From Candidatus Aceula meridiana (GTDB taxonomy: Bacteria; Omnitrophota; Gorgyraeia; Zapsychrales; Aceulaceae): 64,000 nucleotides of DNA. Position 1 is the stretch's first letter, and each line of letters starts with the position of its first letter. Where the stretch lies: NCBI GenBank assembly GCA_030765185.1, contig JAVCDE010000024.1, positions 379,538-443,537 on the forward strand, read 5' to 3'. Under the pieces are notes generated by a model. That model did no database searches. It was not told where the DNA came from and saw only the letters and a list, made by a program, of their open reading frames with translations. The position numbers and the translations under genes are program-made. This document shows positions 20,719 to 40,511 of this stretch, one piece after another.

Positions 20719-20745
20719 ATATAAAAATTGCTACCTAAAATTAAA

Positions 20746-20912: not shown

Positions 20913-21371
20913 CTACTCTGTAGTCTCACCCTCAGAAACATCAACACTGTCTAAAATAGATGTTTCTTTCTCAGCTGTCTTATCGCCTTGCTTACCGCCT
21001 TCTTTGGCCTCTTTTTGATAAGCCTCAAGAACTTTAGTTTGCAGATATTCACGAAATTCCTTTGTTACCGGATGCGCGATATCGCGATGCTCGGCTTTAG
21101 CATCTTCGCCTCGCACATTTGAGGATTCATGAGGGGCAATAGCGGCTGCACAATGATTGCAGAACTTGCTTCCTGCCTCATTTCTAAAATGACACTTCTC
21201 ACAAGAAAGTTTAACTTTTCTCGACGGCATTGCAATAAAAAGCCCGTTAGAGCTTTGGATGACTTTGATATTCCTGACAACAAAACAATTGTCAAATGTC
21301 ACCGTTGTATATGCCTTCAGCTTTTTGTCCTGCCCATCCTTTAAAAATACACGAATTTCAGTAATTTCCAT
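20913..21371 (-). CDS. spoVG: SpoVG-family protein carrying an inserted C4 zinc-ribbon and an acidic C-terminal tail
   Basis: MEITEIRVFL...KLKAYTTVTFDNCFVVRNIKVIQSSNGLFIAMPSRK, then the insert KLSCEKCHFRNEAGSKFCNHCAAAIAPH, then the conserved RDIAHPVTKEFREYLQTKVLEAY. Confidence 0.75.
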   Translation of the reverse strand: MEITEIRVFLKDGQDKKLKAYTTVTFDNCFVVRNIKVIQSSNGLFIAMPSRKVKLSCEKCHFRNEAGSKFCNHCAAAIAPHESSNVRGEDAKAEHRDIAHPVTKEFREYLQTKVLEAYQKEAKEGGKQGDKTAEKETSILDSVDVSEGETTE

Positions 21372-21403
21372 TGGTTGTTCCTCCTCCAGTTATAAGGGTA
21401 TCC

Positions 21404-24369: not shown

Positions 24370-24416
24370 GTAAAAAGTAAAGGGAAGAAAACTTGAGCCT
24401 AATTTAAATAGCTCAA
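24370..24416 (-). terminator. Putative intrinsic terminator of the giant gene (stem UUGAGC/GCUCAA spanning its last codons and stop, followed by GUUUUCUUCCCUUUACUUUUU)
   Basis: Read from the sequence. The 6-bp stem has a 12-nt loop and a U-rich tract on the minus-strand RNA. Confidence 0.35.
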
Positions 24417-27400
24417 CTCTTTGGGTTCATCGGCCTCTATCTCCTGCGCCCACTCACTATCATCAAAATCTTCCTTATTAAGGCCCATTAAAGTCCAAAT
24501 ATTCGTGACAGGCGTAATATTAATAATAACAGGCACAAAACCTTCAATATTGTTAAAGTCTATGCCTTGGAGTTCTACCGGCAGTTCAAACTCAACCCCT
24601 TCGCCTTGGATTTGAAGATCAAGGGCTTGCGGGTTGAAGTCGATACCACCAGGGGCCGAGGAAAGTTCAGCAGCAGACAAATCCCGTAAAGGCTTATTTG
24701 CAATCTCAATAAGTGCATCAAGATATCTTTCGGTAATCAGCCTATCAATGACAACATATGGCCTACCCTTCAAAACACCATCTTTATCCTTAACCGATAT
24801 TTCTGCAGAATGCCATTGGATTAAATTTAATATCCTTCTCTGAAACTGATTCGAGTCTTCGAAATCTAATGCAAAAGTTGTATATGGAAATAAATAATCA
24901 TCCCTAGTCATCAGCTGTTGTTCCTTCAATCCTGAATCATAATCTACGAAGATCGTCACAGGAACACTTGGTTCGTTATCTTCTATACGATATCCATAAT
25001 GAAAAGTTTCCGAAACCGCCTTAATAAACTTCTTAAAAAATAGTTCAGCAACTTCCTTCTCAGTTGAGATAGACCCCTCAAATAAAGGAACTCTTTTCTT
25101 TGATTCCTCATTATGTTTCTTTTTTATTAATTCCAAAAACCCTGGCTTAATAATCATTGCATGCCCTGTATGTCTGAATTCTGTCATTCTCGCTACACGC
25201 TCTGCTGCCAAAACATGGATGGCAATCGTCTTATCTAATATGCGCGCCAACTCCAATATTTTTGCAACCATTCTCTCCTCAAACATTTTATCCGCACTTA
25301 CTTCCACACCTGAAACGGGAGAGAAATAATCCACGGTTGGCTGCTTCCCTACTAAATCAAAATTCATACCCAGGCTTTCCAAATATTTCTTCGCCTCAAA
25401 AGTCGCCTTTTGCACAGAAGTAGCTGCTATACCGCCAGATTTTCTCACCTCCGCAGATACCGTTGGGCTAGTCTTGCCCTTGACCCAAATTTTACATACA
25501 TCCGGCAAAAGAAAAGCTTTTGCATCATCGCCTGTCCTAGTCGGAGGGCCGGAAGGTCCAAGGTTCACATTCAAAATATCAAAAAATCCTAATTCTTTTT
25601 CCTGCGGCCCATGCAGCAGATCTACCTGCCGCAACATCACGACAGAATCACCCTCGTTGATAAGAACTTCTTCTATAATCTTTTGAACGATCTGCAAAGA
25701 TTTCTCGTATTGATTGTCTCCGGGCCAAACGACAAAATTCAAAAGCCCCTTAAACAAAAGCACCTTCTTGCCGGATATAATTTTTAATTCTGCAATATAG
25801 CTCTCTGCATCATCAATAAAATTCTTAGCCGTTCTATCAACCAGATTAACTCTCTCTGCCAAAGGCACACCAAGGTTGCGGCTAATCAACTCTTCTCCTC
25901 GGTCAAAATCATTTTGATCCTTGTTTATAGGAAAAGTCTTTCTAAAAATCGCTGGGATAGAATCGGCACCGCTGACCGGATAAATATAAGTAGTATTCTC
26001 TCCGAAATAATCCGATAAAGCTTTCATGAGATCAAAATATGCCTGTACTTCTATTTTTTCTTTTTCCGTCTTACCTCTCTCCGGTTTTCCTAAGACATTT
26101 TTTACGAGATTAATCGCATCCCGATATTTTTGTAGCGCTGCATTTACATACTCAATATTTCCCTTGATGCCTAATGGCTCGTTCTCATTCATCAGCGAGA
26201 AATTGGTTCCTTCCGAATCCGTTGCTGAACCCTCCGCCCCCTGCGCAGGCGACGAAATACTTTCCCCCTGCACGAAGTCGCTCTTTTCTCCTCCAAATGG
26301 CGAAGGCCTTATATCATTTGTATTTTCACCACTTGAACTGTTTTGAGGAAGATCAGGCTCATCCTTAACAAATCTTCTTAAATATTCAAATGCAATATGA
26401 ATAGCAGATAATTGATCATGAGCTTCTTTATACTCAGAATTCTCTCCGGTTTTCATCTCATCTAAACCTAATCTTGTCTGTATTTGATCGGGCGACCTTT
26501 CTTCTTTATACATTTCCTTTACTTTTGCGTTTCTTGTTCTTTTTAAACCTTTTAAATTTCCAGGTATTTCGTCTAGACCCAAAACAGCCAATGAATTTTG
26601 ATACATTTCATTATCCTTTGTGAAGCCATCACTATCATATCCTGACTGTTCACCTTGAGAATATGATCCTCTGGAATAATCTCTAACCGACTCATACACT
26701 TCATCCATAAAAACATTTAAATTTCTTAAATCTGTAATGCGTTCTTTATTTCTTCGCATAACATCACCTAAGGCTCTATAAAAATGATCCTGCTGACCAT
26801 CAAACCGATGTTCAAGAGAAACAAAAGCATTAACAATAACCTCTAAACTTGATAGATCCGTAATTAAGTGCTGCAAAACCATTACTCCATCGCTGAGAAG
26901 ATCATAATTTTTTCTATCTCTGTATCGCAGCCTTAGAAAAGCATCTAACAATATTTTACTCATAGTCCTATAGTCATCCTCAGAATCCAAAATAGCAACA
27001 ATATCACTTGCGCCATGTTCAATAATCTTCCAAGCTTCATCGCCTGCATCAACACTAGTTTCAACAATAGCTGGCCAGAATTGCCTAAAACGATCTTCTC
27101 CTAATCTTCTAGACAAAACACTTAAACTGCGAAAAAGTATTTCTTCGCTATCTGTAGCAGATTCTCTCATTCGAGCTAATTCAGAACCTACACTCAGCAC
27201 ATCCTCTGAGCTATTAATTAAAGAAACTGCTGCTTTAAGTCCTCCAGAAAAAGCATTAAATGTCTTACCCGAGCCAAGCCTTTGAGCTAATAACAATAAT
27301 TGGTCTCCTACAGATTTAAGAGATTCCTCGTCTTGAACTAAGTGTTTCAGATTTCCGATTCCATAATTTAATATATGAGGTGCGTATTCGCCTGCCTTAT

Positions 27401-30400
27401 TAACTAAATCTTTTGTAGAAGCCCAAGACTGACGAAAGGCTTCGTCTCCAAGTATTTTTCTCAAATTTCCCAATCCCCGAAAAACGTCACTTCTTTCATC
27501 TTCAGATATCTGTAGTCCAATAAGCTCATCAGCCATAGGAACAATTCCATCCAAGCTATCGATTAGGATGTTAACCACTTCAAATCCAGTTCCTAAAATC
27601 TGCCAATCACCCTTTTGATGAACTTTAATTAGTTCTTCACCAGCTTTTTTTAATTCAGGAATTGTTGTTATCAAATTCTTAATACTCTCAAGTGTCGCAC
27701 TAATCGTCCATTCATCATGTTGACCAAAAATATTTTGTAATTCTCTCATCACCGATTTTAAATCCTCATTAGTATTTACTAAAGGTCCCATTGCATTAAG
27801 AGTTTTAAATGCATTAAACCCTGCTGTCTCTTTATACTGTAAAAATTCATCTATCAATCTATTAAATCCATCAAAATCGTCATACAATGTTTTATATGTT
27901 TCAGCAACACTAAATAACCAACTTGCATTGTCTCCAAATCTTTTCTCGCTCTCAATGAGAGCCTGTCCGCGAACTCTTAATTCTTCTGGTGAATTTACGA
28001 ATGGACTTACAAGAGCGACCCCCCCAAGCAATGTTGGTGATTCATTAAAATGATCACTTGGTTCCATTGAATTATTCGCAAGCTCTAGCAGAACAGCCCC
28101 ATATTGACGCACATCTTCTGGCGTGTGAAGTTTATCCGTAATTCCTGCCAAAGCCGTCATTATTGCCGTTATTTTTTTAACCCCAGCTTCTTCGCCTAAT
28201 TTTACAATCTCAGGCCAAATAGTTTTTAGAGTCTCGCTATCAATACCTTTAAGCAATGTTGGTAAATTTCTTCTAAATAGAGGCTGAGCGCCTCGCCCAG
28301 CTGTATCAGATAATCGCACATAATCTCTCGCAATCTTTCCTGCATCATCAGGATCTTCGTACAACGCCTTAGCGTCTAAAAATGCATTGAAAGAGTCTGC
28401 TCGGGAGTCTGTTCGGGAATTTTTCAAATGTTTCCATGCCTCAATTAGTTCAGGCAGCAAAAGATCTAGCTGTGCAGACGGAAATTCCTCAATCATTCTT
28501 TTAAGCAAATGTCTGAAGAAATATTTACTTTCGCCGCCCACCCAGTCTACTTCCGACCAATCATAAATATCATTAAACATATCAATGCTATGACGTTCAA
28601 CGAGACGATCAAAATCTTTCTTATATTCTGCTATCAATTCCTGAAAATGAGGATTATTGCTAATAAAGTCCCTCTTTCTTCGTTCATTAGAAAGCAAAAG
28701 CGACTGCGCGGGGGTGTGGGCGGAAGAGGAAATCTTTTTTCCATCTTCGGAATAAATAGGCTCAATTATTTTTTCCTCTTCCTTCGCGCTATCAGTAACC
28801 TCGTTCCCCGCCCCGCTCGACGCATGAGCGTCATCAGGATTATAAACTTTTGCTTGAGCATCCTGCCCATCATCAATCGTGCTAGAAGAACCACTTCCAC
28901 TCTGCGCAAGGCGCGCTAAAGCACGATAGAGCGTACTATCGTTACCTTTTAAAGTTATAACTTTCTGAGTAGAATTCTCCCAAAGATGTTGAAATAAAGA
29001 ATTGTATAATTGAGGTCTACTATTTCTTAAAAATTCACACATTTCTTTGAGAGTTTTAGCTTTCGTGGAAGAAACAATAATGTCCGGAACAAAAACCTTG
29101 AAAACTTCTTTAACATGATTATTTGAGCATATTTCGAGAAAGTATTCTTTTGCCTTCTCACCATTCTTAAAATCTCCATCCTTCTCAACAAAGGTTATGT
29201 ACTTGCTAATTAAACTATCTGCAGTTGTTTTCCCACGAACTCCCGTTGGCACGATCGTACTATTTACCCCTACACTAATACTACTATGACTAAGGTCCAA
29301 TACTTCACCTATCATACGTGTTGTAATCTTTCTATCGTATTCATTCTCAAGCCGCTCCGTTAAATATGCGGCAAAACCCCGGGCAAACCAAAAGGTAACC
29401 CCCTTTTCCTTTTCAACGAAATCAATAACATATTGTGCAAACCCTCCTTCCTTTAAGAATTCTTTAATCTCTTCAACCAACTGTGCCTGCGAACGAGAAT
29501 TCTTCACTTGCTCAGTATTCTCCCAATCTTGAGTCAAACTTTTCCTTGGAATATAGGTAATAAACTCTTCTTTCGCTGTAATCCCAATACAGTCTGCAAG
29601 GGCACCTGCAATACTTTTTCCTTGCAGTGTGTCGCACTTTTCAATATTACTAATTCTTTTCTTTCCATTTGTTACTTTAATATTTTTTAAATCTTCCTGT
29701 CCGGCAGATACTGCCTTCCAAAAATCTTCTTGCGACTGAAATCTCTGAAGGCGTATTTGCCTGATCATATCTCCAATCGTAAAACCGTCTTCTTTTCTCA
29801 CATCTTCGAAAAGCTCATCAGCGCTTTTTTCCTTAACGATGCCAAACATTAAAAGCCCTAAAGAACGTGCGAGATCTTCATTAAAAGGAGCGGCCCAATC
29901 TGCAATTTTCTTGATTTCCTGAGGCGCACGAGGAAATAATATCCCTCCTTCTCGCCACAAGCGGATTGTCTCCTGGTGTCTGTCCAAACTCTTACTAATC
30001 AAAAAATTTAACATGCCCGTTTTCTTACAGAGTTCATCAAAGACTTCAGAAAATATATTATGCTCTTTAAAATAATCAGGATCTTCTAAAATAGTATTTT
30101 GTTTTCGCTCAATAAGGTCACGAATAAATTCTTCATCTAAAGGAGACAATATTTTCGATATCTCTTGCTCAAGAGAGTCTTCCCCAGTAAGAAGTTTTTG
30201 TTTCTTGTCAACTCGATAAGCCTCCCACGTGTGAGATTTCATCTGAGGATGAGAGGGCTCGCTACCTTTGGCCAAGGGTTGACCTTGAATTTTATAACCA
30301 GCCAATTCAATAATTTCTTTTGTTCTTTTTATTTCATTCTCAAAAAAGACCTTTCCTCTAGAATCCCCATAATCATTATAATAACCCAAAACAATAACAC

Positions 30401-33400
30401 CTTCATCCTCTAACTCTAACGCGTTCATCGCATTCTGAAAAATCTTAACCCTTGTCTTTTTCAAAATAGACGGATCTGATAAAATAGACATCATCACTAG
30501 CACCTGGGCAGGTTTTTTTATTATTTCAGCCTGATCAAAACTTGCTTTCCCATCAGGCACAACAGTCAAGTTATTGTTTTTTACCTTATTAGCCCATTCC
30601 TGCCATAATCCATTGATCCGCTTATCTGGCTCATAAAGGGACACCTTAGCGCCTGCTTCCAAAAACATCTCTTCCCAAAATATCATATTCGCAAATTCTT
30701 CTTCAGCAATAAATCCCATATTGACATATAGTTTGTTATGTAAGTAATCCTCTCCCGGCCCAACTACAATAACTTCTTGATCTTTAAGATCGGGCAAAGA
30801 CTCTACAAAAGAATGGGCCTGGGCAATGCTCTTGGGTTCTATAGGAGTAGCACTTGACTGTTTTTCATTTCTGCCTATTGCCGCAAGATCTTCTTTCTTT
30901 TTCGGTATTTCCATATTATTAACAACAGCGCTAAAAGAACCGGGCTTCTGCGCGAGATCGGGGGCAAAAGAAGATATTTTATCGCCGGAGGTCAAAGTCG
31001 AGGAACTGCTCACCGTCAATCCTTCTTCAAAACCTCGGGCCAGGTCTTCAGGATTCTCCGAATAACTATTAACAATGGTAATAATATTCTTAATATTGGA
31101 AGGAACGCGGTCAAGGTCACTGTAGCGACTGGAAGAGATGTCCGAAAGTCTTTCCACCTCGACTAAGCTTAATTCTCGTTCTTTTATTTTTCGCTTTCTT
31201 TTTTCTTCATTAACAGGAACGACTCTCACCAGCAAAAGGCGGTCAGGATCCTTCCAGTCATAGGAAACTGGTTGGCGTACTGTCTCTAAAATGACGACAT
31301 CGATCCTATTAATGAGGTTCTCCAAGGCTTCGAAATATTCTACGCCATCCCGCTCATCAAATTCATCATAATATTTTATTCCATAATTCACCAACTCTTT
31401 TCTGGCCGCTTGTTTCTCGGAATCACCTTCGCCATCCTTCCAGTCAAAATCAGTAATCCCTTCTTCCTTCAGCAATGTTTCAATAATGGCCCTTATGGCT
31501 ATGGTCTTTCCTGCGCCTGGCGGACCGTTGACGCAAATGACAGGATACTTCTTCCCTTTTTCGCTTCGTTTGAGGCCAAGCCATCGGCCGATTTCCTTCA
31601 TCTTATCCGCTGTCGTGACTAAAGCGCTATCCGCCCCCTGCGCAGGGTCGGCAAACTGTCCCTCTTCTTTTTTCTTTTGCTTAATAAGCTTTAACTGTTC
31701 AAGAGTAGGAATCGTCCCTTCTAAAGCTTCAATATTAACATGAGAAGGATTAAAATATTCAATAAACCGATCTTCTGCCCAAGAATCAACAACATAAGAT
31801 CTAATTTTAAGACCAGGATATTTTAAGCTTAAAGACTCAACTGTTTTTTCATATATTTCAGAGCCAAAACCCTTTCGTTGAATGTTGCTTTCTGAAAACC
31901 TTGAATTATCACCACGACCTACAGAAATCTCGTCCCTCATAAATTCTTTCCTTTTCCTGTCATAATCAATTCTTAAATATAATATATTATCATTTAAACT
32001 CTTGCTGGATGAAGAATCTACAATAAAATGAGATAGTCCTTCTTCAAGATTTTCAATTTCATCAAGAATCACAATATGGCTTGTCTTGTGATCTCTAATG
32101 ATTTCCGCAAACAAAAAGGTCAAATTATTATTTTTCTTAGCTTCTTCTAATTTCTGTCTCACCTTTTTAAAAACATCCTCTAAGCTACCTACGGCATTAA
32201 TGACAGCCGGCTCTTTATTATTATTTAACCGAGTGATTTCTTTTAAAAAATCTGTTTTCTGCACTAAGCTCTCATAAGTAAACAATTCTGGGTTATCTGT
32301 CCTCTGCTCTGGGGCGGAGGCGACAGAACTTGCAACGCTCCATACTGCCTCACGATCTTCTTCAACAACCATGACCTTTAAATTAACAGCTTTTCCTCCT
32401 TCAGGGTAATTTACGCGCTGATCAACAATCATAGCGCGAGGATTTTCTATCTTAATTTTTGCTGCTCTGTTCCTTGCCTTTTGCATTATTTCTTCCTTGT
32501 TAGAATCATAAACAGAAGCGCTTTTCTCAAATAAAACTTTCCCAGGAAATTGCGACTCAACCCTTACTAATTCTTTCGAACCTTCCTCCAAGATGGCAAC
32601 TTTCGTTCCAGGATAATCCTGAGCTATCTTTTGAGCTTCTCGAATTATTTTGGCTCTATTTCTCCTTTTTGAAATAATACCCTCATATAAAATAGCGTTT
32701 TTCAGATATCGATATGATTTCTTTTCAACAATCTGGATTAAAGGAATTTCACTTGTTTTTAGATTAAAATAAAGATGTTTATTAATATTAGAAATTCGAC
32801 CCTCAAAACCCATTTCATAAAAGAATGAAAAATCCAAAACATTGTTGGCCTCCAAGAAATCCCTCGAATTTCTTTTGCAGAGGGCGAGGGCAAAAGAAAC
32901 CAAAGCCCTTCCTAATCCTCGATAGTTCTTCTCTTCAACCCTAATTGCAACACGAACCTCTTTACGATTTAATCCTACTTGATCAGCGCGCAAATAATAA
33001 TGCCCTACTTCTTTATCCTCTCGAATCACTGCGAAACGATAACTGCCAGGGGTAGTGTCCTCCTTTAGCTGAAATTTAAATTCTTCCCCATCATTCGATT
33101 GAAGAACAATCTCTCCTTTTTCGACAAGCTTATCAATCAAACTTTCTGGATTATAAACCTTTATTGAACTTGCCTGAATGCTGCTATCGGAAGGGCTCTT
33201 CCTAGGATTATCTCTTTCGTCAAACCTCCTAAGTCCAATCTTGGTAAAAATATTGTTATACCCCTCTACAATTTTCTTCCGTAATGACGAAGACGCCTCC
33301 TGCGCGGGGTCAGAAATAGCAGACGAAACAACCAAATCGCCTAAGTCATCTACGATGCCGTCTGCATGAGGGTCCATCTTTTCTGCCTTGCCTTCGTTGC

Positions 33401-36400
33401 CTTCGATTAATCCAACAACATAAATCTTTTCTTTTTGCTCCTCTCTTTGCGTAAGAATGTTTCTAAATTCTTTAACATTCTTAGCTGAATCGTCAACGAT
33501 AATAACATTTTCATTAGGATCAATTTCATCAATCAACTTCTTAAAGACTTCGACTTTATTCTTGCTCGTTCTTGCAAAATGGATATCTTTAAAACTTTCC
33601 ATTAATCCAAGCTTCTCTAGAATAGGTTGCTTATCTTCCTTCTTAGCTCCTGAAAGAACCACAAGGGTTGCCCCTTGCGCTATCTTATCTTTTAAGAATT
33701 CAGCAACGCCCGGCTTAAACAGTATTCTCTCAACTTGATCCTTAGGGCGGGTCAAAACCTTATTAACTGCATCGTTTCTTGACTGCTGATAAAACTTATA
33801 AAGTTTGTCCACGAAGACATCTATATCAGTATCTGACGCAAACGAAAACTTATCCGCAAATTTAGATGTAATCAGTTGTTTAAAAATTGGCCCTGTAGAT
33901 TGGCCTGGGGGTTTTTGGAACTGATGACCCTCTTGCAGATCTGCTTCTTTGGGGGTAAACCCTTCAGGGTCTTTAACACCATTTTTTATCATGGCGTACA
34001 CGAAGGCAAAGGGAGCTTGGTCAAACTTTTCAACATCTATGATGACTCCGGCCAAATCGAGAATATAATAATTAACATCTTTTAAATCTAGCTGTCTAAA
34101 GGCTTCCTTTTTCTTTCTGCTCTCAAAAATACTTGTGCCAGGTTTGACTGTTGTTTCCACAGCAATATCCGGAGACCCTGGTAAAAAGAAATAGCCATCA
34201 ACGATTGGCTTTTCCAAATCTTTTTTTGCTTCTTTCTTTTTAGAAGAACTCGACGCCTTTTGTGCAACGATAACTTTTTCTAAGGATATGCTAAAATTCT
34301 CAAACCCTAAGCCTTTTAGGATGACGAAACTTTTTTCAGCATAAGATAAGGCATCTCCTGCAAGATACCCATTCGGTTTTAAAACACGGCCCATCTCTTT
34401 AAAAATTGCTTTAGGATTTTGTTCAGCTAAAAAATACGCATCAATTTCTGAGCCAAACATGACCGTTGAAACAGACGCATCTTTAAAAATACTTTTTAAA
34501 TTATGCGGCTTGTTTCCAATAAGATGAAATCGTCTTTTGATGTCTTCGCTCATCGCGCCAAAGCTTGTCTTAAGGCTTTCGAAGTAGCTCGGATTCCACT
34601 CTAAAACATAAATCTCTGCGCTCGGGAATTCCCTGGCAAGTCTAAAAAATTGATTTGCCCCTCTTTTAGCCCCAACAAAAAGAACTTTTCCTTTTTCTTG
34701 ACGAGTTTTATATCCTTTTTGCCCTAAAGCCTTTACCATGTCTCCAATCACGCGAACATTTTCATTATCATCAAGGATGTCGTCATATTCAAAAAGACGA
34801 AATTCTGGCATAGGTGCCGGTCCGTTCATAGCAACATTGCTAGCACGATTCAAATATGGGCGCACATATCCAAGTTCTTCGACCTTAGCTTTAAGTTCTT
34901 TTTCAGTCTGCCGGTCATTTAAGTCTACTAATCGATAATTGAGGACACCGCTCAAATTATTTTTTAAGATTGAAAATTGATCAACAAGGCCTGGCAAAAA
35001 TTTTAAAAGTTCTTTTCGGCTAATACCGGCATTGAGCAAAACAGTCTCAGAAAAAAATTTAGGAAAAGCAAAGCCCGAATCAATAATAGGAGTTGGTGAC
35101 TGCGTAGAAAAATGCTGACGGGATTTTCGCTCACCCTCATTAAGCTGTTGCTCACTGTGGACCACGCTAAAAACGTCGGGGCTATCAATTCTTGTTCTGT
35201 CCCAAACTCCGGCATAAGTCATATATTTTAATTTTTTCGGATTAAACACGCCCTCGTCAATCAAATCATAAGTCGCAGAAATTACGATGGCTTCGGTATT
35301 TGAATGGGCACGGTAATCGGCAAAGCCTTCACCATTAGAAATAATAAGATCTGGTTTTCGTTTGCGTAAAATATTTTTAACTCTTTCGATGTCTTCTTCT
35401 CCTGCGGCTCCACCCCATCCTTCTTCTGAATAAAAAGTCGAATCCATAGGGTCATGAATTTTTTCGTAAGGAATTCCCAAGCTCATCATGGCAGTTTTGT
35501 TTTCAAAAATTCTAATAGCTGCTTTAATATGCCCTATCGACTCAACATCCCGTGCACCCCAGCGAGCTTTTTCGTTAAAAGATTCTAAAAGAGCATCTAT
35601 AAGATGCAGTAAATGTTGTCGGTTCTCTTGAATAGAATGCGGATGAAAAATCTCTAAAAAGAGCGCCTGAGCGCGCAGGTCTTTTTCTTTTTCCGTCATG
35701 TGTGTCCAAGGGTCAAAATCTGACGGGCTTGTATGAAGATTTTGACTTTCTAAGGTCGGGATAAGCTCTTGCGCCACTTGACTTGTAGTTCTTTTGCTCA
35801 CAGCATCGAGCTTTGCCTTATCCCATCTCTTAATACGCCTCAAAACTTGAGCAACATAAAGATCATCAACAGCCGTAGTACCTTTGGCCGTATAATGAAT
35901 CTCAATGTCGTATCCTTGCTTTGCCAAAACGCGAATATTCTCCCTTTTTGCAAAATAATCATCATCGAGATGCGGGTTAATAATATCTACTTTTTTATCT
36001 CTGTCGCCGGGCTCCCAGCCAAGTTTCTCAATAATGCCATTAGGGGTAATCGTATTGTCTCGGATAGCTTGAGCAATTTCTTTCTTTAGCTCTTCCCAAG
36101 CACCATACTTTTTAAGAGATTTTAAATTGTACTCGACAATCTTGCGGACAATCGGTGGCGCACCAAAAAGTTTGGCAGCATCACTTTCTAGAAATTCAAA
36201 CACATCTTTCTGTTTAAAATTAAGGAGAGTTTTTTCCGGGTTATTCTTTTTTACATCATCGACAAGATATACAAAAAATTTCCTAATCATTTTAGGTGTC
36301 CACTCGTCAATCAAATCAAAATGCCAAAAATGACGCCTGAGCCGCAAGTTTTCTTCAGATCCACCTGCGACTAAATAACTGCCGCGTTGATCGCGCACCG

Positions 36401-38750
36401 CCTGTAGAGGATAAACAACCTTGCGCTCTTTTCCTGACCCTTTAAAGACACGGCCTTCTTCGATACCATAATGCATAGAGTTACGTTTGCTAGCAGTTGT
36501 GGCAAACACGATATGTTTTGGATTCTTTTTACGATTTAAAAGTTCTTTAAAACCATAGGTCATGAACCCATAGCCACGTTTGACCATGTTGCGATAACCG
36601 CCATTTTCCTTGGCATGTCCGGCTAAAACATAGTGGCCAGGAACACCTAAAAATGCATCTTGAATGAGGCGTATCCCCTCCTCTAAAAATGCCATATGGC
36701 CTTTACCTTCATAAGAAGGCCCTACTCCCCAGATCACCATATTCGGTCCGTTACGCAGTTTTAGCTTTCCAGACATCTGCTTGGTTTGCTTTTTCATGGC
36801 ATTCCAAAAGCGATACTGGGCATCTGTTTCGCTTAATTTACCGGATAAAAATTCTTCAATTTTGCTGCCGTGGGTATCAATATCTTTTAAAAGACTTTCA
36901 TATTCTTTGCTTGTCATCTTGCGAAGCTTTTTGCCATCAGCAACAAGATCGCCGTAAAAGAAATAACGCTGAGTTTCAGGAACCTGCAAGAGATCAAGCA
37001 TATTGTTTAAAATATTGGGGAAAGAGTGATAGTCTGTGCGCTTTTGAGGAGCAAGGCCGTCTAAGGCAAAGGCCTCAACACGATTCATATCTGGCTTGTG
37101 ACCAAAATCGATGTTGGGTTTGTTTAAAAATTCTTGCGTTTTTGCTTTATCCCAAGTATTGAGAATATCAGCGAGTAGACGGTACGACACCCAAGGCGTA
37201 TCGCCTGTTGCAAAGTTGACTACAAATTTCTCACCCGATTTAGCAGTGCGCTCCCAAGCTTGGTACTCAGCAATAAATTCTTCAACAAATTTCTCAGCTA
37301 CGGCCACGATATCCTTTAGGATGTGGGCATCCATAGTCTCAGATTGATTAACCGTAAAATTATAAATCGCCTGGGCTGGATTTTGATAATATCCGAGCTC
37401 TCTAAGCTTTTCAAAAGCTGTGCGGACCTCTTGCTCTGATGAGTCTTCCTTAATAGAGGTGATGATTTTCTTTGCCTGCTTTTTGGCTTGTACTGCGCTA
37501 GAGACAAAAAAACTTGCCGCACTCTTATCTCCAGCTGACACAAAAACAAGATCAATATCCTGAAAGCTTGAGGATGTTACCCATTGCGGCAGAGGTGCGG
37601 ATATGGTTGAAGTAAAACTTAAAACTTGGGTAATATTCCAATTGATTCCACCGGAAAAATACTTGCGTGGAACATTCTTTTGCGTATATTTATCATATTC
37701 AACTTTAATATAATCGCAAACACCTTTTTTAAATGACTCGATATACTGAGAATAAATTTCTTCAGTGGCGCCTTCTTTAGCTAAATCAACGCCTTTAACT
37801 TTGCTTTTATCCGCGTACGCTTTTGTTAAAAATGCGTTTTTAAGTTTTGTTTTAAACCATGTTGCCAAAATCATGGAGTGATAGATTTGACGAAGCTGGG
37901 AAAAATTACGCCCGAAGTTAACTTCATGTTCAAGCTCAGGAATAATAATTTCACGGACAATATCAGAAGTAAGCGTAGAACTTTTAGCATTGTTAGCGCT
38001 TAACGTAGAGCGTTTAGCGTTTAGATTATTTATTTCTTCTATGCGTTGCGCACTATCCGCTATCCGCTGTTCGCTATGCGCTAGATAGTCTTCCTCCAAC
38101 ATTACTTTTAGTTTGCTCTCAGCAACAAACGCCCTATCCCCGTTCTCGTACACAACTGCTTTTTCAGGTACAATCCATACCTTACTAAAAGTATCGACCG
38201 GAATGTCCGTTGTCCCATATTCTTCGTAGGCCCTTTCATAAACTCTTTCCCAGAACTTTTTGCCCATCTCATCTTCAGGATAAATTAAGGAAGCTGTGAC
38301 TTGTTTTAACAAATAATCTTGGGCAAGCATGTCACGGCCCATTTCGGTTACGCCTAAAGACTCTGGCACAATACGGCCTTTTTCATAAGGCGAAAGGTTG
38401 ACCCAGAGATCATCCTCAGGAAGAGTTAAAGATGCTAAGAAGTAACGTACAAGTTTTTCGCTCTCTCCTTTTAATTCCGCCGTTTCAAGCCGAGATTGGC
38501 CTTTATCCAGAATAAAATTAAACTTCAATGGCTCTTTGGGATAGACTTGAATTCCTCTTAAAATCGCCGGAGTAAATGAGGGGCTTAAAGGCACTGTAGC
38601 GCCAGGGATAGGAAGGCCTAAAACATTGGAGGCTATTGCCTTAGGAAGATACTGGGGAAGGCATACGTTCTCTGTAAAGGCCACTAAAATAAGTATAGCA
38701 ATAGCCTTAAAAACAGATCGAAATCTATATCTGTTAATAATAAGATTCAT
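24399..38750 (-). CDS. Giant 4,783-aa multidomain protein with an N-terminal signal anchor, a string of enzyme-like domains, a helical tandem-repeat array and a large unassigned C-terminal region
   Basis: Single uninterrupted ORF of 14,352 nt in the provided six-frame track. N-terminus MNLIINRYRFRSVFKAIAILILVAFTENVCLP. Domain motifs are listed as separate features below. The antisense ORFs inside it are short shadow ORFs. Confidence 0.8.
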   Translation of the reverse strand: MNLIINRYRFRSVFKAIAILILVAFTENVCLPQYLPKAIASNVLGLPIPGATVPLSPSFTPAILRGIQVYPKEPLKFNFILDKGQSRLETAELKGESEKLVRYFLASLTLPEDDLWVNLSPYEKGRIVPESLGVTEMGRDMLAQDYLLKQVTASLIYPEDEMGKKFWERVYERAYEEYGTTDIPVDTFSKVWIVPEKAVVYENGDRAFVAESKLKVMLEEDYLAHSEQRIADSAQRIEEINNLNAKRSTLSANNAKSSTLTSDIVREIIIPELEHEVNFGRNFSQLRQIYHSMILATWFKTKLKNAFLTKAYADKSKVKGVDLAKEGATEEIYSQYIESFKKGVCDYIKVEYDKYTQKNVPRKYFSGGINWNITQVLSFTSTISAPLPQWVTSSSFQDIDLVFVSAGDKSAASFFVSSAVQAKKQAKKIITSIKEDSSEQEVRTAFEKLRELGYYQNPAQAIYNFTVNQSETMDAHILKDIVAVAEKFVEEFIAEYQAWERTAKSGEKFVVNFATGDTPWVSYRLLADILNTWDKAKTQEFLNKPNIDFGHKPDMNRVEAFALDGLAPQKRTDYHSFPNILNNMLDLLQVPETQRYFFYGDLVADGKKLRKMTSKEYESLLKDIDTHGSKIEEFLSGKLSETDAQYRFWNAMKKQTKQMSGKLKLRNGPNMVIWGVGPSYEGKGHMAFLEEGIRLIQDAFLGVPGHYVLAGHAKENGGYRNMVKRGYGFMTYGFKELLNRKKNPKHIVFATTASKRNSMHYGIEEGRVFKGSGKERKVVYPLQAVRDQRGSYLVAGGSEENLRLRRHFWHFDLIDEWTPKMIRKFFVYLVDDVKKNNPEKTLLNFKQKDVFEFLESDAAKLFGAPPIVRKIVEYNLKSLKKYGAWEELKKEIAQAIRDNTITPNGIIEKLGWEPGDRDKKVDIINPHLDDDYFAKRENIRVLAKQGYDIEIHYTAKGTTAVDDLYVAQVLRRIKRWDKAKLDAVSKRTTSQVAQELIPTLESQNLHTSPSDFDPWTHMTEKEKDLRAQALFLEIFHPHSIQENRQHLLHLIDALLESFNEKARWGARDVESIGHIKAAIRIFENKTAMMSLGIPYEKIHDPMDSTFYSEEGWGGAAGEEDIERVKNILRKRKPDLIISNGEGFADYRAHSNTEAIVISATYDLIDEGVFNPKKLKYMTYAGVWDRTRIDSPDVFSVVHSEQQLNEGERKSRQHFSTQSPTPIIDSGFAFPKFFSETVLLNAGISRKELLKFLPGLVDQFSILKNNLSGVLNYRLVDLNDRQTEKELKAKVEELGYVRPYLNRASNVAMNGPAPMPEFRLFEYDDILDDNENVRVIGDMVKALGQKGYKTRQEKGKVLFVGAKRGANQFFRLAREFPSAEIYVLEWNPSYFESLKTSFGAMSEDIKRRFHLIGNKPHNLKSIFKDASVSTVMFGSEIDAYFLAEQNPKAIFKEMGRVLKPNGYLAGDALSYAEKSFVILKGLGFENFSISLEKVIVAQKASSSSKKKEAKKDLEKPIVDGYFFLPGSPDIAVETTVKPGTSIFESRKKKEAFRQLDLKDVNYYILDLAGVIIDVEKFDQAPFAFVYAMIKNGVKDPEGFTPKEADLQEGHQFQKPPGQSTGPIFKQLITSKFADKFSFASDTDIDVFVDKLYKFYQQSRNDAVNKVLTRPKDQVERILFKPGVAEFLKDKIAQGATLVVLSGAKKEDKQPILEKLGLMESFKDIHFARTSKNKVEVFKKLIDEIDPNENVIIVDDSAKNVKEFRNILTQREEQKEKIYVVGLIEGNEGKAEKMDPHADGIVDDLGDLVVSSAISDPAQEASSSLRKKIVEGYNNIFTKIGLRRFDERDNPRKSPSDSSIQASSIKVYNPESLIDKLVEKGEIVLQSNDGEEFKFQLKEDTTPGSYRFAVIREDKEVGHYYLRADQVGLNRKEVRVAIRVEEKNYRGLGRALVSFALALCKRNSRDFLEANNVLDFSFFYEMGFEGRISNINKHLYFNLKTSEIPLIQIVEKKSYRYLKNAILYEGIISKRRNRAKIIREAQKIAQDYPGTKVAILEEGSKELVRVESQFPGKVLFEKSASVYDSNKEEIMQKARNRAAKIKIENPRAMIVDQRVNYPEGGKAVNLKVMVVEEDREAVWSVASSVASAPEQRTDNPELFTYESLVQKTDFLKEITRLNNNKEPAVINAVGSLEDVFKKVRQKLEEAKKNNNLTFLFAEIIRDHKTSHIVILDEIENLEEGLSHFIVDSSSSKSLNDNILYLRIDYDRKRKEFMRDEISVGRGDNSRFSESNIQRKGFGSEIYEKTVESLSLKYPGLKIRSYVVDSWAEDRFIEYFNPSHVNIEALEGTIPTLEQLKLIKQKKKEEGQFADPAQGADSALVTTADKMKEIGRWLGLKRSEKGKKYPVICVNGPPGAGKTIAIRAIIETLLKEEGITDFDWKDGEGDSEKQAARKELVNYGIKYYDEFDERDGVEYFEALENLINRIDVVILETVRQPVSYDWKDPDRLLLVRVVPVNEEKRKRKIKERELSLVEVERLSDISSSRYSDLDRVPSNIKNIITIVNSYSENPEDLARGFEEGLTVSSSSTLTSGDKISSFAPDLAQKPGSFSAVVNNMEIPKKKEDLAAIGRNEKQSSATPIEPKSIAQAHSFVESLPDLKDQEVIVVGPGEDYLHNKLYVNMGFIAEEEFANMIFWEEMFLEAGAKVSLYEPDKRINGLWQEWANKVKNNNLTVVPDGKASFDQAEIIKKPAQVLVMMSILSDPSILKKTRVKIFQNAMNALELEDEGVIVLGYYNDYGDSRGKVFFENEIKRTKEIIELAGYKIQGQPLAKGSEPSHPQMKSHTWEAYRVDKKQKLLTGEDSLEQEISKILSPLDEEFIRDLIERKQNTILEDPDYFKEHNIFSEVFDELCKKTGMLNFLISKSLDRHQETIRLWREGGILFPRAPQEIKKIADWAAPFNEDLARSLGLLMFGIVKEKSADELFEDVRKEDGFTIGDMIRQIRLQRFQSQEDFWKAVSAGQEDLKNIKVTNGKKRISNIEKCDTLQGKSIAGALADCIGITAKEEFITYIPRKSLTQDWENTEQVKNSRSQAQLVEEIKEFLKEGGFAQYVIDFVEKEKGVTFWFARGFAAYLTERLENEYDRKITTRMIGEVLDLSHSSISVGVNSTIVPTGVRGKTTADSLISKYITFVEKDGDFKNGEKAKEYFLEICSNNHVKEVFKVFVPDIIVSSTKAKTLKEMCEFLRNSRPQLYNSLFQHLWENSTQKVITLKGNDSTLYRALARLAQSGSGSSSTIDDGQDAQAKVYNPDDAHASSGAGNEVTDSAKEEEKIIEPIYSEDGKKISSSAHTPAQSLLLSNERRKRDFISNNPHFQELIAEYKKDFDRLVERHSIDMFNDIYDWSEVDWVGGESKYFFRHLLKRMIEEFPSAQLDLLLPELIEAWKHLKNSRTDSRADSFNAFLDAKALYEDPDDAGKIARDYVRLSDTAGRGAQPLFRRNLPTLLKGIDSETLKTIWPEIVKLGEEAGVKKITAIMTALAGITDKLHTPEDVRQYGAVLLELANNSMEPSDHFNESPTLLGGVALVSPFVNSPEELRVRGQALIESEKRFGDNASWLFSVAETYKTLYDDFDGFNRLIDEFLQYKETAGFNAFKTLNAMGPLVNTNEDLKSVMRELQNIFGQHDEWTISATLESIKNLITTIPELKKAGEELIKVHQKGDWQILGTGFEVVNILIDSLDGIVPMADELIGLQISEDERSDVFRGLGNLRKILGDEAFRQSWASTKDLVNKAGEYAPHILNYGIGNLKHLVQDEESLKSVGDQLLLLAQRLGSGKTFNAFSGGLKAAVSLINSSEDVLSVGSELARMRESATDSEEILFRSLSVLSRRLGEDRFRQFWPAIVETSVDAGDEAWKIIEHGASDIVAILDSEDDYRTMSKILLDAFLRLRYRDRKNYDLLSDGVMVLQHLITDLSSLEVIVNAFVSLEHRFDGQQDHFYRALGDVMRRNKERITDLRNLNVFMDEVYESVRDYSRGSYSQGEQSGYDSDGFTKDNEMYQNSLAVLGLDEIPGNLKGLKRTRNAKVKEMYKEERSPDQIQTRLGLDEMKTGENSEYKEAHDQLSAIHIAFEYLRRFVKDEPDLPQNSSSGENTNDIRPSPFGGEKSDFVQGESISSPAQGAEGSATDSEGTNFSLMNENEPLGIKGNIEYVNAALQKYRDAINLVKNVLGKPERGKTEKEKIEVQAYFDLMKALSDYFGENTTYIYPVSGADSIPAIFRKTFPINKDQNDFDRGEELISRNLGVPLAERVNLVDRTAKNFIDDAESYIAELKIISGKKVLLFKGLLNFVVWPGDNQYEKSLQIVQKIIEEVLINEGDSVVMLRQVDLLHGPQEKELGFFDILNVNLGPSGPPTRTGDDAKAFLLPDVCKIWVKGKTSPTVSAEVRKSGGIAATSVQKATFEAKKYLESLGMNFDLVGKQPTVDYFSPVSGVEVSADKMFEERMVAKILELARILDKTIAIHVLAAERVARMTEFRHTGHAMIIKPGFLELIKKKHNEESKKRVPLFEGSISTEKEVAELFFKKFIKAVSETFHYGYRIEDNEPSVPVTIFVDYDSGLKEQQLMTRDDYLFPYTTFALDFEDSNQFQRRILNLIQWHSAEISVKDKDGVLKGRPYVVIDRLITERYLDALIEIANKPLRDLSAAELSSAPGGIDFNPQALDLQIQGEGVEFELPVELQGIDFNNIEGFVPVIINITPVTNIWTLMGLNKEDFDDSEWAQEIEADEPKELSYLN
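26650..28450 (-). repeat. Giant protein: array of >=5 degenerate ~95-aa alpha-helical repeats (approx aa 3440-4030)
   Basis: Recurring signature around a conserved Trp. Examples: TIWPEIVKLGEEAG, DNASWLFSVAETYK, HDEWTISATLESIK, FRQSWASTKDLVNKAGEYA and FRQFWPAIVETSVDAGDEA. Confidence 0.5.
30350..30786 (-). other. Giant protein: second Rossmann/methyltransferase-like domain (approx aa 2655-2800)
   Basis: EVIVVGPGEDYL (G-x-G), an acidic strand end VSLYEPD, and ...ELEDEGVIVLGYY. Confidence 0.3.
31190..31566 (-). other. Giant protein: P-loop NTPase, kinase-like (approx aa 2395-2520)
   Basis: Walker A KKYPVICVNGPPGAGKTIAIRAI and a Walker B-like RIDVVILET. Confidence 0.55.
31700..32030 (-). other. 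Giant protein: second GNAT-like segment (approx aa 2240-2350)
   Basis: NIQRKGFGSEIYEKTVESL resembles GNAT motif A. The match is weaker than for the first GNAT. Confidence 0.25.
32750..33140 (-). other. Giant protein: GNAT N-acetyltransferase domain (approx aa 1870-2000)
   Basis: Motif A EEKNYRGLGRALVSFALALC (R-x-x-G-x-G/A) with flanking beta-strand pattern. Confidence 0.55.
33410..34075 (-). other. Giant protein: HAD-like hydrolase fold with degenerate motif I (approx aa 1560-1780)
   Basis: YYILDLAGVIID is motif I-like but not DxD. LVVLSGAKKED is motif II. The Lys in FARTSKNK and the IIVDDSAKNV motif IV are also present. Confidence 0.35.
34300..34850 (-). other. Giant protein: class I SAM-dependent methyltransferase domain (approx aa 1300-1480)
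   Basis: Motif I VLFVGAKRGANQF and an acidic beta-2 end at IYVLEWNPS. Post-II motif RVLKPNGYLAGD, the canonical LLKPGG-type. Confidence 0.6.
36440..37270 (-). other. Giant protein: NagB/Pgl-like sugar-phosphate isomerase-deaminase domain (approx aa 495-770)
   Basis: Three collinear matches to GlcN-6-P deaminase / 6-phosphogluconolactonase signatures. VVNFATGDTPW matches LGLPTGGTP. FALDGLAPQKRTDYHSF matches FNMDEYVGL..ESY.SF. VIWGVGPSYEGKGHMAFLEEG matches LFMGGVGNDGHIAFNEP. Confidence 0.5.
38661..38750 (-). other. Giant protein: N-terminal signal peptide / signal-anchor (aa 1-30)
   Basis: Positively charged n-region (RYRFR) followed by the hydrophobic stretch AIAILILVAF. Confidence 0.6.
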
Positions 38751-38853: not shown

Positions 38854-39017
38854 CCTTGCCAAAAGCAATAGAGGTAGATATAATTATCAAAAGATTTTTA
38901 AAATTTAAAACAATCCCGATTTTTCGCTTTGCGAAAAACGAGATAAATTCGCCCTTCAAATTTACACTCACTAACGTTCTGTACCATTGGGGCTTGATTA
39001 TTGAGAAAGGCTCATTT

Positions 39018-40511
39018 ATGTTAAAAATTTTACGTAAAAAAGGCATCGCTAAAAAGCTGCTTTGGGTTTTGGCTATAATCATTACCCTTTCTTTTATGCT
39101 CTGGGGCGTCTCTTCATCTTTACAACAAACAAGTTCTGTTAAATCTGCCGGTAGAATTTTCAACCGTAAAGTATCTTTTGAAGACTTCCAAAGGGCCCTA
39201 TTGCACGTGCGTAATCAGGCCATCATGCGCTACGGAGAAAACTTTTACCAAATCAGCCAATTTCTAGATTTGGACTCTCAAGCCTGGGACCGATTGATTC
39301 TTTTGCATGAGGCCAAAGAACGTAAAGTCAAAATTCCTGACGCGCAAGTTGTGGCGGCTGTCTCGGAGTTTCCTTTCTTCCAACGTGACGGCGCCTTTGA
39401 CAAAGCTCTTTATGATCAAATTGTTCAATATGTTTTTCGCTGCCGGCCGCGTGATTTTGAAGAAGGCGTACGCGAATCTTTAATGTTTAAGAAAATCTTT
39501 GATGATGAGACAGCGTTTATTAATGTTTCTGAAGATGACGTTCTTAAAGAATACCAAAAACAAAACGAAAAAGTCCAGGTCGAGTATGTTTTGTTCTCTA
39601 CCTCGGATTATGAAAAAGAAGTCTCTTCCCTGGAGGAAGAAGTTCAAAAATATTATGAGAGTCATAAAAATGACTTCAAAATCCCATCGACCATTAATGT
39701 CTCCTACCTTGCCTTAGAATACCCTAAAGAAGCCACAGATGAACAAAAGGATTCTATCAAAAAGAAAGCAGCGGATATTGCTGGTGATATTGCGGGTGAA
39801 CTTTCTTTAGAAGACATTGCTAAGAAATATGAGTTAGAAATAAAAACAAGTGGATTCTTTAGCAAGGAACAGCCTAAAATGGACTTAGGCTGGCCTTTAG
39901 AAATTTTTCAGCGTGCACTTTCTTTAAAAATAGACGAACTGGCAGGACCGATGGAAACAAACAAAGGCTACTATCTTCTTAAGCTTCAAGACCAAAAAGA
40001 ATCTTATGTTCCTGATTTTGAACAAGCGAAAGAAAAAGCTCGAAAAGCTATTGTTACCCAAAAAGCAAAAATTATTGCCCAAGAAAAAGCAAAACAAGCT
40101 TTAGCGCAAATTCAAGAATTTCTCGTTCAAAACCCTAACGCAAAATTCGCCCAAGCTGTCAAAAAAGTCGGCCAAAACATTCAGCAAAGCCCTCTTTTTA
40201 CGCACGGACAATATCTTCCGCAGATAGGCCCGGCTCCTCAATTTCATCAAGCTGCCTTTATGCTTTCCGACGAAGAAAAAATTAGTGATGTCATCGAGAC
40301 ATCGGGTGGTTACGCGATTTTGTCGCTTGTTTCATTTGAACCAATTGATGAGGCAAAATTTGAAGAAGAAAAAGAAGTTCTTTCCGAGAAGCTCTTAGTG
40401 CAGAAAAAAGAGGAAGCCTTTAATGCATTCTTAACGCGCTTAAGAATAAAAGCGCAGCTTCAGAATAACCTGAAGGCTTTGGAAAAATCCACTGAAAATT
40501 CACAAAACTAA
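39018..40511 (+). CDS. ppiD: Membrane-anchored periplasmic chaperone of the PpiD/SurA type (degenerate parvulin domain)
   Basis: Start chosen at the internal Met MLKILRKKG, which is preceded by a GAGAAAGG RBS; the ORF-track start is 38856. The N-terminal TM helix LLWVLAIIITLSFMLWGV is followed by a long K/E-rich periplasmic region with a parvulin-like remnant (DLGWPLEIF...GYYLLKL). Confidence 0.55.
   Translation: MLKILRKKGIAKKLLWVLAIIITLSFMLWGVSSSLQQTSSVKSAGRIFNRKVSFEDFQRALLHVRNQAIMRYGENFYQISQFLDLDSQAWDRLILLHEAKERKVKIPDAQVVAAVSEFPFFQRDGAFDKALYDQIVQYVFRCRPRDFEEGVRESLMFKKIFDDETAFINVSEDDVLKEYQKQNEKVQVEYVLFSTSDYEKEVSSLEEEVQKYYESHKNDFKIPSTINVSYLALEYPKEATDEQKDSIKKKAADIAGDIAGELSLEDIAKKYELEIKTSGFFSKEQPKMDLGWPLEIFQRALSLKIDELAGPMETNKGYYLLKLQDQKESYVPDFEQAKEKARKAIVTQKAKIIAQEKAKQALAQIQEFLVQNPNAKFAQAVKKVGQNIQQSPLFTHGQYLPQIGPAPQFHQAAFMLSDEEKISDVIETSGGYAILSLVSFEPIDEAKFEEEKEVLSEKLLVQKKEEAFNAFLTRLRIKAQLQNNLKALEKSTENSQN

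Follow-up and report, generated by a model that had tools for sequence, protein, structure and literature searches.

Do enzyme domains that follow one another along a giant protein form a pathway? The question is raised by a 64,000-nucleotide stretch of the genome of Candidatus Aceula meridiana (contig JAVCDE010000024.1, positions 379,538 to 443,537; hereafter the window). An initial annotation made from the sequence alone had read its interval 30350-37270 as a fused and exported set of amino-sugar tailoring enzymes, comprising a NagB/Pgl-like fold, a class I methyltransferase, a HAD-like fold, a GNAT acetyltransferase and a kinase-like P-loop. This interval corresponds to residues ~494-2801 of a 4,783-residue protein identical to MDP8266336.1, a hypothetical protein of this Omnitrophota metagenome-assembled genome (MAG) on a 538-kb contig. 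Every motif cited in that annotation is present, the quoted order is kept, and all of them fall inside one minus-strand open reading frame (ORF):

24399..38750 (stop included), minus strand: single ORF of 4,783 amino acids

ATGDTP lies at residue 514, DYHSF at 573 and GVGPSYEGKGHMAF at 675; the methyltransferase-like and HAD parts carry VLFVGAKRG (1356), VLKPNGYL (1456), DLAG (1565) and IIVDD (1750), and RGLGRAL (1944) and GPPGAGKT (2409) follow.

We favor, with moderate confidence, an answer in which the protein is exported through Sec and built as head, cargo and tail, with modules that are independent of one another. A NagB-like and a PIG-L-type domain would together form an amino-sugar deacetylase and deaminase, and in at least two further modules the chemistry would be altered or lost. 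The conserved head consists of a predicted signal peptide and a domain of ~330 residues, the tail is likewise conserved, and the variable cargo between them would be a mosaic whose modules move independently and are connected by Ser-rich linkers. The part of the cargo that we regard as a functional unit is encoded by three adjoining features:

36351..37367, minus strand: NagB-like domain with the glucosamine-6-phosphate deaminase fold (residues ~462-800)
35106..36008, minus strand: PIG-L/LmbE-type de-N-acetylase-like domain (residues ~915-1215), with a helical insertion of ~100 residues
34791..35105, minus strand: C-terminal extension of the NagB/PIG-L module (residues ~1216-1320), which aligns in all module homologues

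The window sequence alone has no Pfam match to PF01182 (Glucosamine_iso) and no match in the PDB by phmmer. Single-sequence phmmer searches of the PDB returned nothing useful for the NagB/PIG-L segment or for residues 1261-2800, and family profiles were required to obtain matches to solved structures. Searching 5.8 billion proteins with residues 441-1260 yielded nine homologues, and those with an organism name come from Omnitrophota MAGs except for one MAG labeled Parachlamydiales. A profile of these nine matched NagB structures in the PDB (3hn6, E 3.6e-10; E. coli 1cd5, E 7e-9). An AlphaFold model built on the homologue alignment (pLDDT 77.8) has the NagB alpha/beta fold, with NagB first in a Foldseek search (1ne7, E 1.6e-8, TM-scores of 0.72-0.80) and 6-phosphogluconolactonases second (E 1e-5 to 1e-4). 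Profile and fold searches thus confirm the predicted NagB/Pgl-like fold and place NagB ahead of the lactonases. Among NCBIfam models, all nine module homologues match PRK02122 (best E 5.8e-34), and most also match the nagB models TIGR00502 and PRK00443, TIGR00502 being hit by seven of the nine (best E 2.1e-10). The window sequence itself matches PRK02122 only (E 4.4e-18, 64.7 bits).

The initial annotation had proposed checking the catalytic residues, which in E. coli NagB we take to be Asp72, Asp141, His143 and Glu148. The equivalents of Asp72, His143 and Glu148, and also of Lys208, are retained (D564, H685, E690 and K755, all invariant), but the position of Asp141 is occupied by K683 (Ala in one homologue) after a four-residue insertion. 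The lid region contains an invariant, family-specific AGHAKE loop.

The PIG-L domain was not named in the initial annotation. Located between the NagB-like domain and the methyltransferase-like segment, it begins with NPHLDDD (residues 925-931) and scores 27.5 bits against PF02585, just under the Pfam gathering threshold of 28.2. The homologue at locus L003 passes at 29.0 bits and several others have a precomputed PF02585 match, while a 13-sequence profile (A5) matches diacetylchitobiose deacetylase (E 8e-6) and the PIG-L part of a structural model matches LnmX, BC1534, BshB and MshB in Foldseek. H927, D929 and D930 are invariant and align with the pHpDD motif of 8bgn and 3we7, so that the metal-ligand and general-base motif of the PIG-L/LmbE family is present. 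D1145 and H1149, within F-x-D-x-x-x-H-S-x-T-E, are also invariant; the profile alignment to solved structures stops short of them.

Together, the NagB-like domain, the PIG-L domain and the extension make up a conserved module of ~860 residues (~460-1320). Its catalytic and metal-ligand residues are invariant in sets of nine (A1) and 13 (A5) homologues, in proteins with and without a signal peptide alike. We found the module in 17 species-representative loci; 10 belong to MAGs labeled Omnitrophota, and the labels of the others are of Planctomycetota, Parachlamydiales or Clostridia type. Stand-alone versions of 870-1,460 residues occur both without a signal peptide (P0004 and P0005, 870 residues) and with one (P0006 and P0008), and the module also lies in very long ORFs, at L003 (5,475 residues, complete) and at L008, L011 and L012 (at least 4,355-6,657 residues). 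A hexokinase is fused C-terminal to the module at loci L010 and L015 and also in P0009, a metagenome protein so similar to L015 that the two may not be independent; the window protein has no hexokinase.

Because of these hexokinase fusions and the relationship to PRK02122, the most economical reading of the module would be a route for sugars of the N-acetylglucosamine (GlcNAc) type in which phosphorylation comes first, de-N-acetylation second and deamination/isomerization last, with PIG-L in the place of NagA. In a zinc-dependent step, the PIG-L domain would most likely de-N-acetylate a GlcNAc-type sugar or sugar phosphate, and the NagB-like domain would then deaminate or isomerize the amino sugar, giving acetate, ammonia and a keto-sugar overall. 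The net reaction would be that of NagA plus NagB in a single unit.

The cargo downstream of the module contains the other enzyme-like segments of the initial annotation, together with two further conserved blocks:

34266..34748, minus strand: methyltransferase-like Rossmann segment (residues ~1335-1495), with a degenerate motif I
33306..34088, minus strand: HAD-superfamily domain (residues ~1555-1815), in which a cap insertion separates motifs I and II
32742..33170, minus strand: GNAT acetyltransferase-like domain (residues ~1861-2003), with motif A YRGLGRAL
32196..32741, minus strand: conserved domain of ~180 residues after the GNAT domain (residues ~2004-2185), which aligns with P0013, P0015, P0016 and P0022
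31020..31634, minus strand: P-loop NTPase domain (residues ~2373-2577), with Walker A GPPGAGKT
29541..30074, minus strand: helix-turn-helix (HTH)-containing block (residues 2893-3070), which matches P0007, L002 and L004

A word-indexed homologue search with the methyltransferase-HAD-GNAT stretch (residues 1261-2060) gave no match, and an exhaustive search of 1.84 billion representatives returned only 17 proteins, none of which covers the methyltransferase-like part. That segment had been described as a canonical class I methyltransferase, a description that does not survive scrutiny. Its matches to Methyltransf_25, 11, 31 and 12 (E 1.3e-3 to 0.17) are all under the cut-off (Methyltransf_25, 19.8 bits against 27; Methyltransf_11, 19.3 against 21.2), and the alignments begin after motif I, which reads VGAKRG and not GxGxG. 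The bona fide methyltransferase of L003 showed no similarity either to this segment or to a second Rossmann-like segment. Placement of the methyltransferase-like segment in the class I methyltransferase fold is plausible.

The HAD assignment is firmer, with PF00702 at 35.4 bits over a cut-off of 26.4. Motifs II-IV are kept, and S1700, the lysine of motif III and D1753-D1754 are shared with relatives, in keeping with the predicted HAD-like fold and its intact DD of motif IV. Motif I reads D1565-L-A1567-G-V, in which the nucleophile D1565 is kept and the Asp two positions on has become Ala. Seven of the eight aligned HAD relatives are acidic at this position, six with Asp (DxDG[VT]) and one, P0014, with Glu (DLEGV); DLAGV occurs only in the window protein. 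The suggestion that motif I is degenerate and the chemistry altered or lost is thus borne out and sharpened, the loss being confined to the Asp+2 general acid/base.

For the GNAT domain, the window sequence alone reaches only 14.6 bits, under the Pfam threshold, but an eight-member profile (A3) retrieves almost only GNATs from the PDB (best 8osp, E 4.8e-5), and six of the eight members match Acetyltransf_7 and four match Acetyltransf_1. The GNAT call with its RGLGRAL motif A was therefore correct. The domain after it has a GNAT unit ahead of it in P0013, P0015 and P0016 but none in P0022, and in P0025 the GNAT unit is repeated at least four times. The GNAT module here opens with KVYNPES (33141-33161), similar to KVYRPED in P0001 and RAYRPQD in P0015, and an orphan KVYNPDD in a linker (28830-28850, residues 3301-3307) may have been left behind when a module was lost. 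Pfam supports neither a possible second GNAT motif A, RKGFGSEIY (residue 2292; 31851-31877), nor a second Rossmann-like glycine loop, VIVVGPGED (residue 2660; 30747-30773).

The P-loop domain carries a genuine Walker A motif, but the proposal that it resembles small-molecule kinases more than AAA+ ATPases was not confirmed. Its profile matches in the PDB are limited to the neighborhood of Walker A and are best to AAA+ (Lon, E 0.0046), Pfam returns nSTAND_NTPase5 and AAA_18, the latter spanning the whole domain under the cut-off (E 3e-4), and database matches are to AAA+ proteins as often as to kinases. The sole relative, the 976-residue metagenome protein P0012, is 49-57% identical; its P-loop is flanked by two segments that, by eye, have GHKL/HATPase_c-type motifs, and repeated Ser-rich linkers (…INASKGPxRSSQKENNG…) separate the segments. 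A possible likeness of the lid region to uridine-kinase-type motifs was given no weight.

The methyltransferase-like, HAD, GNAT with its companion, and P-loop segments would be generic building blocks of Omnitrophota long proteins, in which methyltransferases, GNATs and HADs co-occur widely, as in class 1 multi-enzyme metabolic clusters (Nielsen & Lui 2026, bioRxiv 10.64898/2026.06.07.730766). Two of these modules, the methyltransferase-like segment and the HAD domain, carry damaged catalytic motifs.

A degenerate motif I in the one, loss of the HAD Asp+2 in the window protein only, and replacement of the NagB Asp141 could also mean that the protein is mostly non-catalytic, its enzyme folds having been kept as pseudo-enzymes that bind ligands or serve as scaffold in an adhesin-like surface protein. 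Some 2,000 residues toward the C-terminus are helical or without annotation, and giant ORFs have been proposed as adhesins in published work. We nevertheless consider this distinctly unlikely: the D/H/E of NagB, the H/D/D/H of PIG-L, motif A of GNAT, and the HAD nucleophile and motifs II-IV are conserved, several of them invariant across distant homologues, which points to selection on the active sites.

The frame around this cargo is formed by three features:

38628..38750, minus strand: predicted Sec signal peptide (residues 1-41), with R7, R9, R11 and K15, a hydrophobic core at residues 13-31 and the site AIA followed by S
37641..38627, minus strand: conserved head domain (residues ~42-370), ending in RKYFSGG
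24402..24650, minus strand: conserved C-terminal tail (residues 4701-4783, ~70-80 residues), GGIDFN...GFVPVIINITPV...LMGL

The head has at least 1,402 relatives; the best 120 score E about 1e-115, and all of those with an organism name are from Omnitrophota/Omnitrophica. Its alignment has 39 invariant columns. The head has no Pfam match, and a confident model of it (pTM 0.73) found no significant fold match in the PDB by Foldseek; its top matches, all non-significant, are the ClyA-family pore-forming toxins NheA, Cry6Aa, SmhA, ClyA and MakE (E 0.06-2.6, TM-score about 0.15). The family pattern of the tail is GGID[FL]N...PVIINIxP...LLG, and a tail is found at the C-terminus of 20 head-bearing proteins. 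One of the family, P0088, is hardly more than head plus tail (438 residues). In eight complete head-to-tail proteins, picked by motif, the cargo measures 192-352 residues in six short members, 1,756 in P0017 and 4,332 here. Cargo elsewhere in the head family is mostly unannotatable, with some NUDIX, HAD, Ser/Thr kinase, Zeta-toxin-like, KTI12-like, ankyrin and HEAT domains. The tail could possibly serve as a sorting signal, an anchor or a partner of the head.

Export had been proposed in the initial annotation and is supported as a prediction. The core of the signal peptide is the sole segment of the protein with a Kyte-Doolittle value above 1.6, no further membrane-like segment follows, and of the 28 head homologues whose N-terminus is complete, 27 show the n-h-c pattern of a classic Sec signal, ending in YAQ or AQA. 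Exported in this way, the protein would act at the cell surface, in the periplasm or in a partner cell. An uncleaved N-terminal anchor would instead leave a membrane-tethered, cytoplasmic multi-enzyme that serves the cell's own (amino-)sugar metabolism. This would suit the cargo chemistries, all of which require cytoplasmic co-substrates, as well as the occurrence of the module without a signal peptide and fused to hexokinase, and Nielsen & Lui take nearly half of long proteins as cytoplasm-facing. We regard tethering as doubtful, however: the positive charges before the core predict an N-in/C-out orientation, an AXA-type site follows the core in a pattern found family-wide, there are no further transmembrane helices, and signal peptides likewise open the stand-alone module proteins P0006 and P0008 as well as L003.

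How stable is the cargo between head and tail? A direct comparison is provided by P0011, a positional orthologue of 3,824 residues (L019, 8001-19475) that lies between a ppiD-like gene and hisG. At least 10 genes share their order between the two loci (dinB, rmuC, Cu-oxidase_4, AhpC, ppiD-like, giant gene, hisG, ispE, spoVG, glmU), and the flanking proteins are 46-80% identical. Similarity between P0011 and the window protein is limited to the head (43% identical), the HAD domain (44%), a piece of ~130 residues and the tail (49%). P0011 has no NagB, PIG-L, GNAT or P-loop signatures, and its cargo is mostly different, with a precomputed Pfam match to a DOT1-like methyltransferase. Since the flanking proteins are 46-80% identical and head and tail only 43-49%, the giant gene itself evolves faster than its neighbors.

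The surroundings of the module vary as well. L004, L002 and P0007 have the order head, HTH block, NagB module, whereas the window protein has its HTH block 1,600 residues beyond the NagB module; PF01381/PF13560 are matched in P0007, and an XRE-type HTH in a predicted exported protein is odd. Elsewhere the module is accompanied by a weak radical-SAM match and a strong methyltransferase (L003) or by TPR, HATPase_c and a starch-synthase-type GT5 (L011). No other protein was found to combine the methyltransferase-like, HAD, GNAT and P-loop segments with NagB/PIG-L.

These comparisons bear on the notion of one tailoring line, in which a single substrate would pass successively through deacetylation/deamination, methylation, dephosphorylation, N-acetylation and phosphorylation, the enzymes being fused for channeling. 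Sugar tailoring makes use of GNAT, methyltransferase, HAD and kinase chemistries alike, the NagB/PIG-L pair has a link to amino sugars, and in P0001 the module is followed directly by the same type of GNAT. Yet the syntenic orthologue is without four of the six domains, order and partners vary, the methyltransferase-like segment has a damaged motif I and the HAD domain a damaged Asp+2, and the P-loop matches AAA+ proteins as often as kinases; methyltransferase, GNAT and HAD, moreover, co-occur generically in Omnitrophota long proteins. We give such a line little credence. Because order and partners vary, the syntenic orthologue differs, and methyltransferase, GNAT and HAD are generic, the co-linear enzyme set reads, on comparative grounds, as a lineage-specific mosaic with no conserved pathway. 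The amino-sugar theme holds for the NagB/PIG-L unit, with its PRK02122 arrangement, most of the catalytic residues and hexokinase-fused relatives, but not for the set as a whole.

Conserved termini around a mosaic cargo of fast turnover would also fit a delivered multi-effector toxin of the MARTX kind. Head and tail would secrete and translocate the array, and the enzymes would act in a host or prey cell on its ATP, S-adenosylmethionine (SAM), acetyl-CoA and amino-sugar pools, the NagB/PIG-L unit draining cell-wall precursor sugars. Such delivery would account for a cargo that requires cytoplasmic co-substrates despite its Sec signal. The Zeta-toxin-like, Ser/Thr kinase, NUDIX, ankyrin and HEAT domains of the head family are effector-typical, the head's top matches, non-significant as they are, are to ClyA-family toxins, and published work considers Omnitrophota likely to depend on hosts or to be predators and has linked giant proteins to cell-envelope attack. 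Pfam and NCBIfam scans, however, detected neither RTX repeats nor an autoprocessing protease nor any known translocation domain. For the head there is no significant fold match, genes of a secretion system do not adjoin the giant gene, most of the family's cargo is unannotatable, and the resemblance is one of analogy only. A toxin of this kind is in our view unlikely. We would be equally cautious about a broader proposal, which we put forward as speculation against the odds: that head, cargo and tail form a phylum-wide polymorphic effector chassis, of which the window protein is the longest known version, and that the array enters a host or prey cell after Sec export. Inside that cell, the NagB/PIG-L unit and its companions would draw on the victim's co-substrates, and the amino-sugar precursors of the cell wall would be destroyed or rewired.

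Several points weigh against the reading that we prefer, an exported mosaic with an amino-sugar deacetylase/deaminase unit. The replacement of Asp141 and the adjacent insertion may mean that the NagB-like domain has a different chemistry or only binds sugars, and the third metal ligand of the putative PIG-L site was assigned from invariance, not from alignment. Signal-less and hexokinase-fused relatives argue that the native setting of the module may be cytoplasmic. Enzymes that depend on SAM, acetyl-CoA or ATP have no obvious supply of co-substrate outside the cytoplasm, which is awkward for export of the whole cargo; delivery into another cell, tethering at the membrane and non-catalytic modules are alternatives that address this tension. 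Finally, the word-indexed homologue search was not exhaustive, and rarer proteins with the full co-linear set could have been missed.

The scanned neighbors of the giant gene look like ordinary chromosomal genes, and base composition and strand skew are uniform across it and them. One flank holds glmU, a tRNA gene, spoVG, ispE, a TPR-protein gene and hisG. The opposite flank starts with a ppiD/SurA-like chaperone gene, divergently transcribed, and continues with genes for an AhpC/TSA-family redoxin and a Cu-oxidase_4 protein, rmuC and dinB. The ppiD/SurA-like gene, for a periplasmic chaperone (38856-40511, plus strand), starts 105 bp from the start of the giant gene, an adjacency that is also kept at L019. 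The glmU/tRNA/spoVG/ispE cluster lies downstream at 19459-22261. The product of glmU is amino-sugar-related, and we considered the gene, 3.7 kb away, as support for the theme; we rejected it as part of a conserved housekeeping cluster (ispE, spoVG, tRNA gene, glmU) that is also conserved at L019, where prs follows glmU, and that is not linked to the cargo of the giant gene. An Rfam scan of the window found a single tRNA (20746-20816) and nothing else. Recent internal duplication was likewise rejected, there being no protein-level paralogues or repeats in the window and short DNA repeats being at chance level.

The tripeptide PAQ, with an expected count of 0.42, occurs six times in the giant protein, and four of these copies, in the form [SD]PAQ[GE]A, are found in Ser-rich linkers between domains (33294-33314, 31632-31652, 28698-28718 and 26235-26255). 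PAQ is absent from the homologues and may be a linker or processing motif peculiar to the window protein.

The role of the very long multi-enzyme proteins of Omnitrophota is an open question, and these proteins are too large for direct study. The conserved module, the head-tail frame and the turnover of cargo in a syntenic setting provide useful handles on the problem. The compact NagB-like/PIG-L unit, with or without hexokinase, offers an assayable prediction, GlcNAc-type deacetylation followed by deamination. The head-tail frame is common to well over a thousand proteins, and the complete ones recovered here begin at about 440 residues, a size that can be expressed and localized; were the effector-chassis proposal true, the short members of 440-770 residues would be tractable models for Omnitrophota giant proteins. 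The syntenic pair of loci, in which cargo was exchanged while the frame stayed, argues against reading domain order as a pathway, and more generally cautions that "themes" should not be inferred from co-linear domains in mosaic proteins.

Among characterized arrangements, the module is closest to PRK02122 (NF002557, 'glucosamine-6-phosphate deaminase-like protein'), a protein of ~650 residues with the same two domains, NagB then PIG-L, in the same order. At 64.7 bits against a cut-off of 384 bits, it is a distant relative and not a member of that family. It differs in its size of ~860 residues, with a helical linker, the ~100-residue PIG-L insertion and a C-terminal extension of ~100 residues, in the replacement of Asp141, and in lying inside long proteins that are predicted to be exported. 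A functional parallel is GlcNAc catabolism by NagK, NagA and NagB, to which the module plus hexokinase (P0009, L010 and L015) would correspond as kinase, deacetylase and deaminase. Those are separate cytoplasmic enzymes, whereas the domains here are fused and the deacetylase is of the PIG-L/LmbE type with no NagA amidohydrolase; the window protein, in addition, is without hexokinase and has a signal peptide.

MARTX toxins, in which conserved terminal regions surround a mosaic effector array, are an architectural analogue only. They are of similar size (about 3.5-5.3 thousand residues), and their modular cargo likewise differs between related strains or genomes. Unlike them, the window protein has an N-terminal Sec signal, its head and tail belong to unrelated families, and Pfam and NCBIfam scans of the protein and ten neighbors found no RTX or glycine-rich repeats, cysteine protease domain or type I secretion system genes.

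The nearest relatives in kind are the giant multi-enzyme proteins of the same phylum, the Archaeovorins (West-Roberts et al. 2023, bioRxiv 10.1101/2023.11.21.568195) and the class 1 multi-enzyme metabolic clusters, in which divergent enzyme domains tile one polypeptide (see also Seymour et al. 2023 and Nielsen & Lui 2026 for Omnitrophota long multi-enzyme proteins). West-Roberts et al. and Nielsen & Lui, a limited literature that is no proof of novelty, mention neither the NagB/PIG-L module nor the head-tail frame. At 4,783 residues the window protein is below the thresholds of the published catalogues (at least 10 or more than 30 thousand residues), and it has a signal peptide only, with no transmembrane helices; 94% of Omnitrophota long proteins are reported to have one or the other. 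Its Omnitrophota origin, its many enzyme domains on one polypeptide and its signal peptide are nonetheless those of the class. Also in agreement are the co-occurrence of methyltransferase, GNAT and HAD domains, hexokinase and HATPase_c as partners, the bias toward signal peptides or transmembrane helices, and low sequence conservation. The window protein is in line with what has been published on the long multi-enzyme proteins of Omnitrophota, and the enzyme set that first drew attention to it is largely ordinary for the phylum.

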